A stretch of 64,000 nt of DNA from Pseudogymnoascus verrucosus (Eukaryota): the NCBI GenBank assembly GCA_001662655.1, contig KV460260.1; one strand, given 5' to 3'. Position 1 is the first letter of the stretch. Every line of letters begins with the position of its first letter. Below, one piece after another: positions 53,804 to 63,010 of the stretch. Made by a program: the position numbers and the translations under genes. The notes beneath the pieces are model-generated. The model had not been told where the DNA came from. It saw only the letters and a list, made by a program, of their open reading frames with translations, and ran no database searches.

Positions 53804-55713
53804 CTAAGCACCTACGTAATAGATGTTAGGCTTTGGTGGGGTTTTCATACGGTCACCGAGAAAGTAATCAACGTGATGAGACTGCATGTATCCCTTGAGT
53901 GTCATGGCGTTGCGGTAGGCCGGGTTGTGCGGCAGCGTATAAAGGCGGATGTCCGACGGGATGTTCGTGCTGAAGATGAGAAGCTCATCGTAATTGGCAT
54001 TTGTAACAACAACCTCCTCGCGCCAGTCGCCCAAAATGTCGCCGAGGAAGAGTGGGTTTCGGGTCGACACGCTGCCACCGTAGTCGCTGATCTTGAGAAA
54101 TCGTGGCATCTTTCCAGACACACTTGGTTTCAACCAGTCCCACTGCTCGAATTTCCCGTCGTTGTAGAGTTCCATGAGCGCGTCGCCATCCCACCATAGA
54201 CCTAGCTGTGGCCATGGTGCTAAAGTGGTGTCTTCTTCGGTGAGCTTGTTGGTTGCCGCATTGTAGACGCCGTCGAAAGCCCAGACCTCCATGCCCGGGC
54301 TCCGTGGGTCAATGTCACCAGCCATACCGCGTGCGACATCGCCTACCTCGGTGCCAAAGTGCTCCCAGATAAGCTTTCCGGTGGAGGCGTCGTATAAGTA
54401 CTCCATAAGGAGACTGGGGTTATCCTGCTGGATGCCATAGCCTTGAAGACCTGCGCGCGATGGATCCATCTTGGAAATATGGAACCGGTCGCCATGGCCA
54501 ATACCCTGACCTGCCAACGAATACCGCAAGGTGCCATCGCCGTTGAGCGCGAAGCCAATCTCGCAGACTTCGTCCTTTCCATCGCCGTTAAGATCAATAA
54601 TGCGCGTATTATGCCCATCTGAGGCATCCTGGTCACCTCGTACCCATCTCCACGCCAATTTTACAGCCTTGCCGTCAAATTTCCAGGCGGCCATGATAAG
54701 GTTGAACGCACCCTGACCCGGTTGGCGGTTCTTCATATAAGTTACAAGATGCGGCGTGACACCGTCTAGGTAGCCGACACCAAACCGGGCTGCAAGAGGG
54801 CCATCAGACAGGTACTCGTTTTCAATATGAGCAGTGGCACGTAGCGCTCCTGTCTCGCCGTTGATAATGGCGATATATTGGTCGTCATCACCATTTCCAC
54901 CACTGAAAGTTTTCCCATCTCCAAACACGACGCCGTTTGCGATTCGGACACTTGCATATCGTTAGCTACATGAGAATTTAGGGGGTTAAGGTGTAGCCTA
55001 CGCAACCTCAGCCTTTCCATCGCTATCGAAGTCATAGACAGTAATTCCATCCCAATGGCCGACGTTCAAAGCTGATGAGCCAGGCTCAATGTTGTTTTGA
55101 TTCACACTGTTTGGTCCCATGTTGATCTCCCATAAAAACTTACCATCACTGCGGTAAGCTTCAAGAGTACTGGGCGCTGTCTGCCGGTCGATCACATAGT
55201 CATACTCCTTTAAACACGTCAGGCATCTGAAATCCGCCCTGGGGGACCACATAAATAACTTACTCCGTCTCCATCCAGATCGCCAACCCACAGGTATTTG
55301 ATAACGCCACCCGATTTGATCGGGATCCTGACGACTGGCTCTGCAGCATTGTTGGCCGCCAAGGTGAACTTGCCGCTGTCGGCCGCTTCCTTGCCGTTAA
55401 GCACTGGTCTCACATGGTACGTGTTGCTTTCTGCCAAGTTGGGATTTAGGTCGTGGAAATTGGTGCCGCCAGTCAAGACCTTGGAGTTGAGAAGCTTTGG
55501 GTTGCCGGAGCCGGTGGCTCTGTAGACGTTGAAGCCAATGCTTTCATCGTCAAGCCCTAGCAGCCGCCAGCCTACCAAAACGGCTGTCTCGTTTGAACGG
55601 ACTGCGACGACACCACGACCAAGGTTCTCCATGGGCCTCTGGGCCAATGCGGCAGGTGCGAAGACTGCAGTGGTAGCGGCAACCGCAATTACGATCTTGG
55701 ATAAAACGCCCAT
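53804..55713 (-). CDS. Secreted rhamnogalacturonan lyase, polysaccharide lyase family 11 (YesW/YesX-like)
   Basis: Signal peptide followed by QRPMENLGRGVVAV, VGWRLLG, FNVYR, VGDLDGDGEYD, VYDFDSDGKAE, GHGDRFH, DILGDWREE, RLYTLPHNPAYR; introns 55208-55263 and 54951-55001. Confidence 0.92.
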
Positions 55714-56304
55714 GGTTTCTAATGAAAGCTGAGTCGCCGTGAATCGAATGGACAAAGTTCGATGAGGATAAACGATTTAAAATCCGACATGATAACATTA
55801 TTATATACTTCAAGCTCCCTTGCACTCTCAATCGGCCAATATATGAGAACGGAGTTTCGGTGTATTTGCAGCGGACAGTTGTCCGGATGCGGATCCCCTG
55901 AATGAAACGAAGAATAACCCTCATTGGAGGGAAATAAACAATTGCCTATGCCATTAGTATCTCGGACAGAGACTCTCTCCGCACTATGGGATGGCCAAGT
56001 TCATGCATACTCTTTTCATCCAATATTTCAACATATTGTCCAAGCAATGGGAACTTAAAACACGAGCCGCCCTATATGTGGAGTAAGCAGGTCAGTTCAT
56101 TTAATCTCATCCGAGCACCTACGACACAAATTAGCCGTTTTCTAGCATCCTCCAGTTAGTTGATAGTGAAAACATGACTTCTGCCAACTTTTCTGACATT
56201 CGTATCTGTTCCGGCCCAACCGCGAATATACCGTATTCGTGGATATGCTGGCCCATTCGCGAATNNNNNNNNNNNNNNNNNNNNNNNNNNNNNNNNNNNN
56301 NNNN

Positions 56305-56851
56305 CGAATAGTAGTAGAAATAGAAGTAATCAATTGATCTATATAGCTACGTTTCCAGCTGTGTCTGCCCGTGCTCGTTTCTGATGAGGCCTCTCAACTA
56401 GAGCTATTTCTGTACGAGAAGTAAGGCCTGATAAATTACCACAGTCATGGTCATCATTCTGGTAGTGTACACTACACTGCTTTGCTTCCTTATAACACCA
56501 GCACCTCTTTATACTACAGTACCCCTTACATTAACAGGATATTCCAACCCGAGCAGTTGTAGAAGCCTCTCTAGCTGCAAGCCCTAGGCTTACTTCCTTA
56601 GTAGAAGTAGGAATTACTATATCACTCCATAGAGCTTGCTCTATAACTCCGAGTGATTTTGTAGGAATAAGGCGTTGTATAATACTAGAAGCAGTAAGAA
56701 TCTGATACCTATGAGGGTAAGGCTCCTCTAGAATCCTTACAAATAGCCTATTACTATCAGTTGAAGTTCTATCCTCTCGAGGAACCTTAGCAGAGGCTAT
56801 AGCTCCTATATCAAAGTGTTGAATATCGTGCGCCTGATAGCTGCATGTCAA
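56305..56851 (-). pseudogene. Decayed integrase-type transposase C-terminus (KRBA2/SCAND3-like)
   Basis: FDIGAIASAKVPREDRTSTD...YQILT...VSLGLAAREAST...ISC*CKGYCSIKRCWCYK...CSVHY; premature stop; TpA-rich composition consistent with RIP. Confidence 0.7.
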
Positions 56852-58134
56852 GACGTCTTTCAGCTGCCCACGTTGTCATTGTAGAATCTAAACCCAGTGC
56901 TAATAATTTTGAGTAATGCTTCAATGTGCCCATATTTTTGGTCCATGTTGACATTGAAACGATCTCGGTTGATGTAATCGTCTGCAGCTGCCTGTATGTG
57001 ATACCTGTCAGAAATTAGAGCTAAGACCTCTAATCTGCAGACAATAATTCATGCAATTGCCACCTCTGGAGTTTGGCTGGCTAATAGTAACCGTGTAGTT
57101 ACTAAGCTACGGAATACCAAGAGCCATAGCTCCAGCTACTTTTGCAACGCACTCCGTGAATGCTCTTCCGCTGGATCCACCACTAGGTCCTTGCTCCCAT
57201 GAGCGCAAATCAGCTCTTGCCGTGAAATTTTCAAGGCTACTAGTGGTGTCTCGCCTATAGAGATAGATTGCGTTCTTGTAGACTCATTAATATTGAAGCC
57301 CGCCGTAGTAAAAGTCAACAAGCCATGGCGTCTCTGAGGAGTATGTACCCGAGTCCAGTATAGCCCAAACTCATCAGTCAGAGCGTGACGACAATCATAC
57401 TTGCTTGTCTGGTGCTTGAGACTTGGTAGGCGGCGTTATGAAGAGTAGCAACGTGGTATTTTTGAAACATCTTTGCGTCCATTGTGGAGGTGGGCATCCG
57501 CTCTAAGAGACGACCTTCGTCATCTTGATTCGTGGGTCTGTCCCCCGTTGCGTTCGGATGATGGTCGAGAGTCGTAAAGCAAATTTATGGGCAGCAGCCG
57601 TCACTTTGCCAGTGTAAAAGTTTACTGAGACAGACAAGGCTAGACCAGCTTTTGAGGCTCTTACACGAACAACGCGGAGTCGAACTCTTTCGATGCTCAT
57701 TTTCTGAATCGTCTGACGTCACCTGAACAAAGCCGCATCAGATCACCAGACTCCTCTTCCCTTACAGGGTAGCAGGAAAGCGGAGGGGTGAGATGGTCCG
57801 TACCTAATGAAGGGTATGGTGTGCATGCAAGTATGCCATTTCTCCTAATACAGCTTTCAAAGCATGAATGACCTTGAAAGTGCATCCGTGTTTTTTGTGG
57901 AGACAAGAACAGAGACTAGGGTCTCCGGATCAGTATATGAAAAATGCTTGTGGATGCTAGGAGTGGTGATGCTGGGAGTGGTCATCGACAAAAAGTGACT
58001 GCAATACGACAAACGATTCAATACGACCATCTTTCATTTCGACTAACTATCCGCTTTAAGCCTGTCTCGACCAGACACAATCAACCATCGCGAGAATACT
58101 TGTTCTCTTAAATGAATCATGCCCTTGAATACTT

Positions 58135-58794
58135 TCATAAGCCACACAAAGACAAGATAACACTATCAGATGCATCCCCCGGATTGACGTCCCCACAATA
58201 GACCAGGTATCCATTTCCCACGTTTGCTGCAACCACTGCGGCCTGCGCTTGATCCACATATTCTGTGGGGAAGACAGACGATTGAGTCTTAGCGCCACTA
58301 ACTGGAATGAAGACCTTTTCATGGGGTTGAGCGTTTTTGACGTGAAGCACCTTCATGCTATATGGCGCAGGAAGCGAGTCTGACGCGGCTCCCAAGGGAA
58401 GGGAGCAGGTGGGGTTAAGCTTGAAGTCGGACCTATGATAGTCGCCGTGCTTCCAAGGAATGCCAAAAGCCCTGTTGAAGAAATTGTCGAAGTCATCCAT
58501 CCTCGTAAAGTTTGGGAAATGTAAACCAAAGATGACCAGGCCGCCATTACGAACGTATAACACCACTTTATCCAGCACTACTCTATTCTCCGTCTTCGTC
58601 AAGCCTTCGTCGGTGACCAGGATCGCTCTTGGGCTGCTCTCTTCAAGGTATTGAATCGCCTCACTTGCCACTTTGGCACGCCTCAATTGGGTGGATTCAT
58701 TGAGTCTATTGAATAGGGACGAATACGATTCATCTAGAAATTCTCGAAACATAAGACTAAGAACAAAAATTACCGGGCGGTTCACAGACTCCAT
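58135..58794 (-). CDS. Conserved fungal hypothetical protein (219 aa, possibly class I glutamine-amidotransferase-like fold), inside the transposon
   Basis: Intact intronless ATG-to-TGA ORF with PRAILVTDEGL, YVRNGG.VIFG, FG.PW..GDYHR, YSMK.LHV, GYLVYCGDVN; no RIP-like composition. Confidence 0.75.
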   Translation of the reverse strand: MESVNRPVIFVLSLMFREFLDESYSSLFNRLNESTQLRRAKVASEAIQYLEESSPRAILVTDEGLTKTENRVVLDKVVLYVRNGGLVIFGLHFPNFTRMDDFDNFFNRAFGIPWKHGDYHRSDFKLNPTCSLPLGAASDSLPAPYSMKVLHVKNAQPHEKVFIPVSGAKTQSSVFPTEYVDQAQAAVVAANVGNGYLVYCGDVNPGDASDSVILSLCGL

Positions 58795-59179
58795 CGTGAG
58801 TAATGAGGTAGCAAGAGCGTCAAGAGGGTGAGGATGAAAGCAACGACCTTAGCATCTCGGTTATCCTCAGGTTTGTTACAAGACCGATCAGAACGTTTCT
58901 GGTTGGTTCGTTCAAGGCAGAGCCACATTGCAGTGCAGCAATTGTGTACCCGTATTGTACTGGCTTTTACGTCATCATCTGTCACACCAATGGCACCGCT
59001 ACATGGGTATGAATTTTGCGCCTGGCCAAAGAAAGAACCAAAGCTCCTAGCAGCTGCGTTAACTACACGAATCCGTGGGAAAAGAACTATGATAAAATTC
59101 TTCGTGTTTCAGAGATGACGAAGAAAATGGGTCAGTTCATATCATCAAACCACCTAATAAGCCATACCGATCTTATATA

Positions 59180-59517
59180 TGTTCCGGTCCAACCGCGAGT
59201 TTGGCCCATTACTGAATGGGCCAGCCCATTCGTGACCTAGCCGGCCCAACCACAAGTTTTGCGATTAACGATTGGGCTGGCCTATTCACCTATGGACCGG
59301 CCGAACCACAAGTAATTAGAAATAGGAGTAATTAATTAATCTATATCTACGCTTCCTGTGCTCGTTTCTAACGAGGGCATCATATTTTTAGTTAGGCAAG
59401 CCCATTCGCGAATAGGCCGGCCTAGTCGTAGAGACTCATATTCGTGGTTGGGCCGGCCCATTCGCGAATGGGCCAGCATATCCACGAATACGGTACATTC
59501 GCGGTTAGGCCGGAACA
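59180..59517. repeat. Short (338 bp) internally deleted copy/terminus of the same element, with palindromic subterminal repeats
   Basis: Begins TGTTCCGGTCCAACCGCGA. Segment 59310-59380 resembles 56305-56390. Repeated GGCCCATTCGCGAATGGGCC-like units, with a perfect 20-bp palindrome at 59455-59474. Confidence 0.7.
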
Positions 59518-60790
59518 TATCTTTTCGAGACGCGAATATAGCTTACAGCAGCCTCTGCATAACTTTTTCAGTCGGGTATTTACATTGAAATGTGCCGGTT
59601 TAAACATCTGTGCCGATCCCATGAGGCACCTCACACTGCGCCCCGCAAATACTCTAACTTAAACCCCAGATACTTCGGTCCCTCGGCAAACTCATCCATA
59701 ACGGTCCAATGGAATGGCCTCCTCCTCGGATGACCCCAACGCGGCCCGTCCGCATCAACGGCCGAGGATAGCGTACCAAAGAGAAGAATCAGCACGTCAG
59801 ACCCCAAGATTAACAAGTCGCTTCCTCGAACGGCTTATCTCGCGCGAAATCAAACCTTCGCAGTAGTCGTGGCAGGTGACTTGTATGTGGTTTATGACTG
59901 CACACCGCTTGCGACTCGGCCTGACGGGGGAAAGGCCGCCGCACCTCATTAATGCCTGGATTCTACAGGCTATGCTATTTCCGTAATATCTATGCAATCT
60001 ACTACGCAAATCTGATATACAACTCAAACTTGATCTACGCGCATAACGTGCTACGCCACAGCATGCCCCGTTCTCCGCGGAGGACATTCTTCTTCCGCAA
60101 CGCGTTGGTGGCGGGGTTATACGAGTAGCACTGCCTGCAGCTTCCCCCTTTTGTTCTCATAGCGCGACTGTGGGGCGCCGGGGCGCGGAGAAGATGGTCA
60201 CCGTTAGACTTCCCTGGTTGATAGTTTTAGTTAGTGTCGCACGGGATATAGGGAAAGGTAGGTGACTTACCGTGTCAAGGAAGCTGAATATTTGGTGGCC
60301 CGTTGGTATGGCATCCATGTCTAGTGTTGGTCCAACGTATTTCCGTGTGAGGGTGTCGCGAGAGCAGAGTAAACCGCTGGAAGCGGTGTAGCTTGGGCGC
60401 CTTGCATGGTTCCCAAATACTAAGTTTTCGAGTTGTTCGATGGCTGTATTTCCTTGGAATCCAGCAAGCTCTGGCTAGATTTCTCGACTTCTGCTTCAAA
60501 AGTAAACAGAAGGCAGAACGGTGTAAAAAAGAGTAAAAAAGCCGGTCGTTAAAAAGACCAGAGGTGTGTGACATAGATCCGCCGCCATATCAAGAAGAGT
60601 AGAACGCCCAACTTCCCACCGATTACCAGTAAAAATGGTGGTGATTTGCACCAACACCACTGACACCAAGAATTCTAGGGATAATGGCATAAAAACGTTA
60701 TATGTCAAGGGCCGAGCCGCTTCGGTCGCAAGTAGTGCAGGAAACACCCACAAAGCTTCCATCCTCAGGAGCATCCCATAATCATAGCTC

Positions 60791-63010
60791 TTAAGTTGGA
60801 ACCACAAGCATTTCTAATGGTTTCACAACGAAACCATACACTTTTTGTGTAAAAGTTGTATCTTTCCAATTTAGTGTCCCGTTCAAGGGACAAGATATGC
60901 ACCACCTGATGATTGGTTCCATCTTTGGTTCCTCTTCCGCGACCATCTCTAACCAGTCAATCGCACAGAGGTAATCGGTACCATCGAGTGCTTTTCCGTC
61001 AGAAGATAAATGGGCCTTTCGCAGCGACTGCTGGTTTTCGATCGCTTCACCGAAACAAAGCTCAAGCAGTAACATACCAAGACAGCGGAGAGTTTTGCGT
61101 GGATCTATGGGAAGAATCCCAGTAGTATTTGGCTCTTGGGAAACAGAATCGCCTGGCTTTGAGGCGACGAATTTATGACTGATATATGGTTCCTCTGCAA
61201 GTATATCAGGCCCTTGGTGGTAGAAGAAAATGTTTTTCTTTTCTAGTTTCTCAGCGAGCCAGGGAGTAGCGTGTAGTTGTAACAGGGAGGAGGCTACAAT
61301 ACTTGCTAACTTGTATCGCTTTTGTCTGCTCAGTTTCAAGTGGCCGTTGCTTGTGAGTAACTTTTCGAGGCTGATTTCCCCTAGACTCGGAGGGGCTTGC
61401 CGTGTATCTTTAATCCACCGCACTTCGTGCTCCTGATGCACGTTATCTGAGAGACAACCAAAGAATTCCACATCCGGATCAAGGCCTTTCATGGCCGAGC
61501 ACAAGTCTTTGATCTTGATATTGACAAGGGGCTCCTCTTTAGTCAAAGGCGGCGCTGGTGGTGGTGGCGGCGGTGTGACTAGGCAGCTTTGTTGCGAGGC
61601 ATCTAGACAAGGTTTCGCACCCTGGGCATTTCTAGGTTCTGTTGGCAGGTCGGGTACAAAACGAAGAGTTTTCTTGGGTTTGAATTTTGGCATTGATATC
61701 AATTTGCTAGAAAGTGTTAGTATCTGATTCCGAAAATATATATAAAGGTTTCCGCAAAATAACTTGCCTTGAGTGTTTATCTACCAAAGTTCCTGTTCCA
61801 TCTAGAATCTCGCTCTTTGGAAATATGCTTCTCAAGCTAAAGCTAGATGAGACAGAAGAGGATGATGAACGCAGACCGGGCCGAACTAGAAGGGTCGGAC
61901 TGCTGACATCAGGAGGCGATTTTGGCTGAAAGTGGGTCCTCAGTTGAGTTATATATGTCTCTTCAACTAGAACAGGCTGTGTACTCTCTGGTGTTGGGGT
62001 ATCTTGTGAATCTTTGGCATAGATGAGTAATTTGCGCCTCGAATTTGCTGAAGTTGGTTCTCGTTGTGGCAGTGCTAAGTTTATGATAAACCTCGGCGGG
62101 CAATCGCTTGCTTGTCGTTTTTGCAATTGAAGGTTAGCCAAGTGGCTCACTTCGCAATTGCAGTTCCAGCTGTTTTTGATTACAGAGTGTAGAGTAGCTG
62201 CATGGCGTCTGATATTCTCAAACAATTCCCCCCAACTTGTACCGTTTGGAACAGGCTTCATGCCTTCAAAGGTGTCGTTGGTGCCGTCAAGGAGACGCAA
62301 GAGTCTCTCCAAATCCTTGATCTTCTTCTCGAGTGACTGGACGGTCCTTTTCCCATTCTCACTAAAACTAAGCTCGATTCTCTTTAACTGATATTTCCAT
62401 TGGTTCTTCCCAGAAACCGCCCAATCGACCTATGAGTCTCGAGTTAGTTGTGTAGTCACTTAGGTGGCCTTGTACTAATACATACAGTTCCATCTTTTAA
62501 AGACATCATAGCCTGTAGATCTACCATGTCCTCATTCATTGTTCTTAGAATATCTGCCGCCACATTAGTACAGCAAAAATCCAATTGTAAAGAGAGAGAT
62601 AAGGAGCTGTAGGCTGTCTCAGAAGCCTGTATACGACTACCAGGGCATCCTAAAACAAGAGAACAACTTTTAGTACGAGAATAAGACGTACCCATGCAAG
62701 CATCATGCGCGTTCCCGAGCCGCGACCTCAAGGCCTCAACAACGTCACTCCGGTGCCAGCCTTCATAATTCGCTATCGTTAGCAGCCTCTGCTTTTCTTC
62801 TGGCTCGAGTTGTACTGGGGCCAAAAGATTTATCAGCACCAGCCTGAACATTTGCTTCTGGGTATCAACGGCGGTGATGAACTCCCGGAAGACGAGTTTA
62901 AATAGTTTCCATCTACGCAATGGCTCAAATCCCTTCTTGTAATGCTCTCCGACGGAGATAATGAGGGGCAATCCTCCTAGGACCAGGCCGATGACCTCAA
63001 CTCCAGACAT
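60791..63010 (-). CDS. Hypothetical protein with an N-terminal MSGxExxGLVLG helical domain and a C-terminal DUF7580-like domain
   Basis: MSGVEVIGLVLGGLPLIISVGEHY; WNCNC..H; RYKLASIVASSLLQLHATPWL; LGMLLLELCFG. Introns 62554-62691, ~62430-62483 and GC-AG 61707-61767. Confidence 0.8.

Follow-up and report, generated by a model that had tools for sequence, protein, structure and literature searches.

The DNA considered here is a stretch of 64,000 nt of contig KV460260.1 of the filamentous ascomycete Pseudogymnoascus verrucosus (assembly GCA_001662655.1), referred to below in its full length as the window. Between a gene for a rhamnogalacturonan lyase and a gene of the DUF7580 family it holds a 3.3-kb unit (56207-59517) bounded by near-identical terminal inverted repeats (TIRs). 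We read this unit as a non-autonomous composite transposon of the Ginger2 family which was moved as one unit by cut-and-paste in the manner of a macrotransposon, and we give this reading a probability of about 0.6. The unit consists, in this order, of a truncated Ginger2 copy (56207-56831), a cargo with an intact 219-aa gene (56832-59179) and a short element (59180-59517), and the two copies lie in the same orientation. An earlier note on this DNA had proposed a single transposon with a passenger gene. The outer TIR-bounded unit of that proposal stands, but its right end turned out to be a whole short element with an inner terminus of its own, and the architecture is therefore that of a composite of two defective copies. 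What we infer is the movement, both as one piece and by cut-and-paste.

Termini and composite architecture

The letters TATC stand directly outside both ends of the unit, at 56203-56206 and 59518-59521, as read from the sequence. The earlier note had described TIRs identical at 56 of 58 positions with TATC at both ends; this description holds, and since its coordinates (56203-59521) take in both TATC copies, the element proper is trimmed to 56207-59517. The left TIR (TGTTCCGGCCCAACC..., 56207-56264, plus strand), which is interrupted by a run of N, matches the right TIR of the whole unit (59460-59517, minus strand, read as 59517-59460) at 56/58 nt (96.6%), and a repeat analysis of the window gave inverted arms of 61 nt with 95% identity. 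When the 21-nt terminus TGTTCCGGCCCAACCGCGAAT is searched with up to three mismatches, four matches are found in the 64-kb window against 0 expected (100 shuffles), and all of them lie inside the unit, at 56207 and 59180 on the plus strand and at 59440 and 59497 on the minus strand.

Comparison with other copies shows how far the repeat extends. In metagenomes a gapped pattern of the TIR found one copy, on contig L009, which is one-ended and agrees with the left TIR at 51/58 positions. Its terminus is that of the unit, but the flank is another one (...GATCTA, followed by TGTTCC), and because TCTA stands there in the place of TATC, TATC is not part of the element. The L009 repeat continues through GGCCCATTCGCGAATGGGCCGGCCCAACCACGAATA like the right end of the unit, with a 37-nt stretch common to both, and since L009 and the right end match over 59439-59519 (81 nt, 88.9% identity), the true repeat length is at least 81 nt. 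Five related sequencing runs hold at least half of the sampled words of 54200-61500, and four of them (X2, X3, X19 and X20) were aligned to 54700-61000; runs X5-X18 share 0.06-0.20 of the sampled words, are uninformative either way and were left out. In the right end the conserved repeat continues inward to about 59437, and other family copies in X2, X3 and X19 share 59437-59517 and then diverge, leaving loose ends at 59437. A scan of viral contigs with the terminus gave 8 loci, all at chance level (23-28 of 58 positions), and a scan of prokaryote contigs with a 29-nt piece of the TIR gave no match, as expected.

The window has a single assembly gap, 40 N at 56265-56304, and this gap adjoins the left repeat, as it would if the left repeat had been wrongly joined there in scaffolding and no real unit existed. 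Such an artefact is hardly credible. Record 23 of run X3 (54700-56379) crosses the gap from the left flank through the repeat into the transposase remnant described below and omits 22 of the 40 letters, so that the join is real and some 18 nt of subterminal repeat are truly missing. In L009 and in the short element, too, the repeat is followed by the sequence that stands after the gap here. The mis-join at the gap which the earlier note had named as fatal to its proposal was thus not found.

The inner left terminus, missed in the earlier note, lies at 59180 (TGTTCCGGTCC...), with 2 mismatches in 21 and TATA before it. It opens a complete internal-deletion derivative of 338 bp (59180-59517, plus strand) that resembles a miniature inverted-repeat transposable element: over its left 197 bp, which reach into the final codons of the transposase, it follows the outer left end colinearly, the remaining 141 bp form the right end of the unit, and 59317-59376 resembles 56315-56389 (repeat families D3 and D4). 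The left repeat of this short element agrees with the outer left repeat at 41/58 positions, as compared with 56/58 between the two outer ends, and the outer ends are therefore the well-matched pair. The divergence of the left half of the short element was also considered as an argument on age and was dropped, since both main models must explain it equally.

The flanks of the four termini read TATC, TATA and TATC in the unit and TCTA in L009. A unit with TATC on either side and TATA inside is as expected of a composite whose short element kept half of an older duplication, and a target site duplication (TSD) of 4 bp has the size published for Ginger2 (PMC2836005). The target G-TATC-T agrees with the published Ginger2 target RTATAY at 5/6 positions, in a single two-ended case. 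The same letters could have arisen by another history, in which two independent Ginger2 insertions were made around resident DNA, the left copy at 56207 later lost its right two thirds, and the short derivative was inserted separately. In favour of this history, the short element is whole, with neither terminus lacking, its flanks TATA and TATC differ at one base, and close neighbours are expected occasionally in an abundant family; 4-bp flanks are also more likely to match by chance where TA-rich targets are preferred (PMC2836005), and one event fewer is needed than for the composite. We nevertheless regard independent insertions as unlikely, as the outer flanks match at 4/4 positions and the short element's own flanks do not, and as the outer ends are a near-identical pair where the ends of the short element are poorly matched. 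The evidence of the cargo and of the related genomes on this history is given below.

Several further observations concern the ends and their surroundings. A palindromic motif around GGCCCATTCGCGAATGGGCC is found in the subterminal regions, 59203-59474 and 56250-56264, with three matches at up to three mismatches, and repeat family D1, from the region of the subterminal palindrome, has a spacing of 56 nt; these motifs are probably transposase-binding sites. In some contigs of the relatives just the outermost 15-22 nt of the left end and the outermost 15-115 nt of the right end are present, linked by 6-12 other letters. Such end-to-end joints run from 56221 to 59503 in X20 and from 56228 to 59404 in X2 (window positions 56221-56228 and 59404-59503), and they may represent either excision footprints or derivatives of very small size. 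An older family relic to the right of the unit, suggested by the 9-nt GCGAATATA, was rejected after a short-word BLAST of the family gave nothing above chance outside the unit.

Transposase remnant and family assignment

The truncated copy contains a decayed C-terminal remnant of a Ginger2-type transposase (56351-56836, minus strand), which corresponds to residues 566-727 of a 729-aa relative and keeps a CXC-like Cys cluster. The stop-containing open reading frame (ORF) with a Cys cluster noted earlier is real: the minus-strand frame 56306-57205 has 9 stops in 300 codons and the cluster reads C*CKGYCSIKRCWCYKEAKQC. A BLASTP search with the stops as X gave 25 protein matches of 538-732 aa with identity up to 78%, 22/25 of them with rve (PF00665) and most from Pseudogymnoascus species, and against the C-terminal 162 residues of Pseudogymnoascus proteins with H2C2 and rve the identity rises up to 83%. 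Four full-length relatives were compared with the window by tblastn, and all four match only 56342-56875, with their last 162-175 residues; this search found no other transposase copy in the window, and the H2C2 and rve/DDE parts are absent from the window copy. In the relatives these parts are present by Pfam in 4/4 cases, Integrase_H2C2 at aa ~95-150 and rve at aa ~164-259. With both parts gone the unit is non-autonomous, on which the earlier note was right. Homology of the remnant to other copies stops at 56831, whereas the transposase frame of L009 goes on beyond this point where the window copy breaks off.

The C-terminal cluster C-x-C-x3-C-x4-C-x-C-x6-C is found in 18/25 of the transposase relatives and lies at 56420-56485 (minus strand) in the window. 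Pfam gave just a sub-threshold preSET_CXC match on the remnant (E 0.59), and the cluster may be an extra DNA-binding module of this transposase family. The remnant also has indices like those of repeat-induced point mutation (RIP), with TpA/ApT at 1.54 and (CpA+TpG)/(ApC+GpT) at 0.90, where the customary thresholds are about 0.89 and about 1.03, respectively. Summed depth over 56388-56809 in the relatives is 14-150 times that of the flanks, and while summed depth is not copy number, the transposase family is clearly highly repeated in these genomes. Intact transposase ORFs of 596-729 aa are present in the genus, and with so abundant a family a source of transposase is therefore plausible.

As described, Ginger2 is defined by a transposase with H2C2 and DDE and without YPYY and GPY/F, TIRs of 50-180 bp, TGTNR termini, 4-bp TSDs and the target RTATAY, and the TSD is 5 bp in TDD-4/5 (PMC2836005). 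Judged by domains, motifs and ends, the H2C2+rve transposase family found here fits Ginger2 and not Ginger1 or GingerRoot. It is like Ginger2/Tdd in its H2C2 and rve/DDE transposase without YPYY and GPY/F, in TIR length, in TGT at the ends, in an apparent 4-bp TSD and an AT-rich target near RTATAY in the one two-ended case, and in having short non-autonomous derivatives comparable to the 252-bp Ginger2-1N1_NV (PMC2836005). The best solved structural relative of the full-length transposases is the integrase of prototype foamy virus (PFV). One Metarhizium relative of the remnant carries the NCBI name SCAN domain-containing protein 3, and SCAND3 is described as derived from Ginger2 (PMC3575427). 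There are also differences. The termini read TGTTC...GAACA, in L009 likewise, so that TGT is as in Ginger2 and the fifth base is C instead of R; the C-terminal CXC-like Cys cluster is apparently not among the Ginger2 motifs named in the founding description; and the host is a filamentous ascomycete, where the sole fungal case given in 2010 was a TIR-less vestige in Malassezia (PMC2836005). The 3.3-kb unit differs, in addition, by carrying a whole foreign gene.

The neighbouring families do not agree. Ginger1 duplicates CCGG or CCGT, shares the YPYY and GPY/F motifs with Gypsy and has a C-terminal OTU or Ulp1 domain; here the flanking repeat is TATC, YP[YF]Y and GP[YF] occur each in 0/25 relatives by a regex search only, and OTU and Ulp1 domains were not found by Pfam in the four full-length relatives. 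For GingerRoot, just 4 bp are repeated (CGTATC on the left and TATCTT on the right) and the target is AT-rich. The label Ginger/GingerRoot-like thus keeps its first half, a Ginger-type integrase-like transposase with up to 83% identity to H2C2+rve relatives, and loses GingerRoot, which has TSDs of 6-8 bp. A remnant of a long terminal repeat retrotransposon was also considered, and was rejected since the repeats are inverted and not direct and the relatives, of 550-730 aa, have H2C2 and rve only, where a pol with RT and RNase H would be expected.

Cargo gene and insertion site in related genomes

The cargo is 2.35 kb of single-copy DNA (56832-59179) unrelated to the transposon family and without transposase similarity. 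Its 219-aa gene (58135-58794, minus strand) is as clean as first reported: the ORF is open and complete, and in an alignment of 42 family members the protein departs from none of the 18 invariant columns. A total of 103 homologues were found for it, most of which, from Leotiomycetes and Eurotiomycetes, are about 219 aa long and colinear with it. Its AlphaFold2 model has a predicted local distance difference test score (pLDDT) of 95, and a Foldseek search with this model returned ThuA-like proteins and the GH42 trimerisation domain at template modelling (TM) scores of 0.5-0.6. Pfam gave just a sub-threshold match to Glyco_hydro_42M (E 0.15), with which the fold search agreed later. The predicted fold is ThuA-like, of the class-I glutamine-amidotransferase-like kind.

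Depth over the cargo and over its flanks is 36.8 vs 40.5 in X2, 23.2 vs 20.2 in X3 and 16.8 vs 18.2 in X19. Because the depth over 57021-59130 equals that of the flanks, the cargo is single copy in these three relatives, and none of the contigs listed for them has other flanks over 57021-59130. The RIP indices of the cargo, 0.76 and 1.24, give no RIP signature, unlike those of the adjoining remnant. A single copy without RIP fits a conservative movement, and the same two facts tell against the Pack-type capture favoured in the earlier note, taken here to mean one Ginger element which lost its interior and copied host DNA during faulty gap repair while the parent gene stayed elsewhere. Capture of this kind would agree with the size of the unit, which is about that of a full-length element (3.3-5 kb in the contigs of the relatives), and with a transposase broken off sharply at 56831, and gene fragments are common in GingerRoot, in 22 of 77 (PMC6839031). 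However, the cargo is a whole gene plus its surroundings and not a fragment, it is free of RIP next to a RIP-like remnant, and the complete inner terminus at 59180 after TATA is left unexplained. As there is no parental copy in the three well-covered related genomes, duplicative capture is disfavoured, and we consider it very unlikely. The single-copy cargo is equally what one would expect of resident DNA between independent insertions.

The site itself is filled in X2, X3 and X19 at about 99% identity. Contigs in each of them link the left flank with the left repeat, the remnant with the right repeat by way of the cargo, and the right repeat with the right flank, whereas the contigs of X20 are short and the location of its copy is not readable from them. 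No joint skipping the whole unit was found in the four related runs. The gene on the left (53804-55713, minus strand) encodes the PL11 rhamnogalacturonan lyase, with its best match, at 99%, in VE01_08954 of P. verrucosus, and the gene on the right (60794-63010, minus strand) encodes the DUF7580 protein. In the 90% cluster of PL11, the proteins of VKM F-103, WSF 3629, VKM F-4519 and 24MN13 are 98.7%, 96.2%, 98.7% and 99.0% identical to that of the window, respectively; the DUF7580 orthologues were found by a search of 50% representatives, and V499_09534 is colinear with the right gene of the window. In VKM F-103, PL11 (V499_09533) and DUF7580 (V499_09534) bear consecutive tags, each on a contig of length 29,788, and in WSF 3629 the same is true of VE00_08630 and VE00_08629, each on a contig of length 111,627. 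By locus-tag order no annotated gene lies between the two in either strain, and no homologue among the 103 found is named from VKM F-103 or WSF 3629. These two relatives therefore appear, from their annotation, to show the empty state at gene level. Synteny of the 219-aa gene in relatives lacking the TIRs, which the earlier note would have taken as a refutation, was thus not found; in these two relatives the flank genes adjoin. Of the empty site that it had hoped for, the gene-level form is present in two relatives, and the nucleotide-level form is not seen.

Three side observations concern the flanks. In X2, X3 and X19, 76 nt of the right flank (59689-59764) are absent with an identical joint from 59688 to 59765, an indel relative to the genome of the window. 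The DUF7580 gene is 73-97% identical, exon by exon, to its orthologue in VKM F-103 as compared with 98.7% for PL11, so that divergence is uneven across the insertion site. Finally, PL11 has actinobacterial homologues at 64-66% identity, little below the 66-71% found in other fungal classes, and judging from these identities the PL11 family looks like an old bacterium-to-fungus transfer.

The distribution of the 219-aa gene within the genus is patchy. The gene is annotated in two relatives, and among the Pseudogymnoascus genomes named at NCBI it is found only in that of the window, in sp. 24MN13 (99%) and in VKM F-3808 (95%); the next-best homologues after these carriers are just 76% and 73% identical. 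Under independent insertions the gene would always have been resident and would have been lost in the relatives without it. We judge this to be as unlikely as the insertion history to which it belongs, since the flank genes adjoin in two close relatives in whose proteomes no homologue is named, and since several losses would be required, as the other NCBI-named Pseudogymnoascus are also without the gene. Conversely, because the gene is named in three genomes only, is missing in the other NCBI-named Pseudogymnoascus proteomes searched and has its next homologues at 73-76%, one may ask whether the 3.3-kb Ginger2 composite served as the vehicle on which the gene entered the Pseudogymnoascus lineage by horizontal transfer from outside the genus; this is a quite doubtful proposal.

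In the composite reading that we favour, a 5'-truncated Ginger2 copy, namely a 3' end with the left TIR and the last 162 transposase codons, decayed by RIP, would supply the left end, and the 338-bp deletion derivative of the same family would supply the right inverted repeat. The transposase would come from one of the numerous full-length copies elsewhere in the genome; it would bind the two outward-facing, near-identical ends, and the whole stretch would be cut out and pasted between the PL11 gene and the DUF7580 gene with duplication of the target TATC. The TATA before the inner terminus would be half of an older duplication, kept inside by the short element. The unit shows three marks of a macrotransposon, namely direct orientation of its two copies, outer ends that match each other and a TSD around the whole; the fourth, an empty state in relatives, is seen at gene level only, in two of them.

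Several points weigh against this reading. A 4-bp TSD match is weak evidence by itself, and the family seems to favour TA-rich targets (TATC, TATA, TATC and TCTA); three X20 contigs with other flanks start aligning at 56202/56203, and TATC-like flanks may thus be common in the family. An empty site with a single TATC was not seen at nucleotide level, as three of the four runs are filled and X20 is fragmentary. The empty state in VKM F-103 and WSF 3629 rests on locus-tag order and on an absent annotated homologue, and the same picture would arise if a gene had gone unannotated, or if recombination between the direct copies had left the short element alone; this, ahead of the short TSD, is the main weakness of the reading. 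The composite is known from a single copy, which gives no sign of repeated mobility. Finally, relatives in which the site is without the 219-aa gene have it nowhere else either, a distribution for which a simple cut-and-paste move out of a donor locus in the same genome is not explanation enough.

Relation to known mobile elements and significance

Discussion of gene movement in filamentous fungi has centred on the giant Starships, along with ToxhAT as the single well-studied small case. The unit described here is like ToxhAT in being a class II, TIR-bounded fungal element with intact non-transposon genes and a patchy distribution among species (PMC6737239). On the other hand, ToxhAT belongs to hAT, is four times larger (14 kb) and carries ToxA between wheat pathogens; horizontal transfer is documented there and conjectured here, and the cargo here is without a known role (PMC6737239). 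A parallel in mechanism would be the Ac/Ds macrotransposons of maize, in which two direct copies of the same family use their outer ends together and the DNA between them moves (PMC3260210). These are again hAT elements, with 8-bp TSDs, and their movement was shown genetically, where ours is presumed from sequence (PMC3260210). One partner in the present unit is, moreover, a truncated copy with a single end.

GingerRoot and Pack-MULE elements (the latter derived from Mutator-like elements, MULEs) likewise have TIRs, and their transposases are integrase-related or of the MULE kind; host sequence is carried by their non-autonomous members, in which DDE is usually lacking (PMC6839031). GingerRoot differs from the unit in that it makes TSDs of 6-8 bp, most often 6, at GC-rich targets, has TIRs of 100-150 bp and has been described in plants and animals, and its cargo consists of gene fragments 79-98% identical to retained parental genes, as opposed to a whole gene with no parental copy here (PMC6839031). 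In fungal surveys Ginger elements are called "ubiquitous, expansions in Dikarya" (PMC5751038). The literature searched gave no anatomy, TSD or cargo for an ascomycete Ginger, and on Ginger2, fungal hosts and non-autonomous elements together just the 2010 founding paper was found (PMC2836005). The novelty thus apparently lies in an ascomycete composite whose two defective Ginger2-family copies enclose an intact gene and which seems to be polymorphic between close relatives.

Since close relatives appear to include both the filled and the empty state, the composite reading is directly testable. If it is true, two defective integrase-type copies would be enough to make about 2 kb of ordinary DNA and a working gene mobile, and this would be a simple, small-scale route to gene presence/absence variation among closely related fungi.

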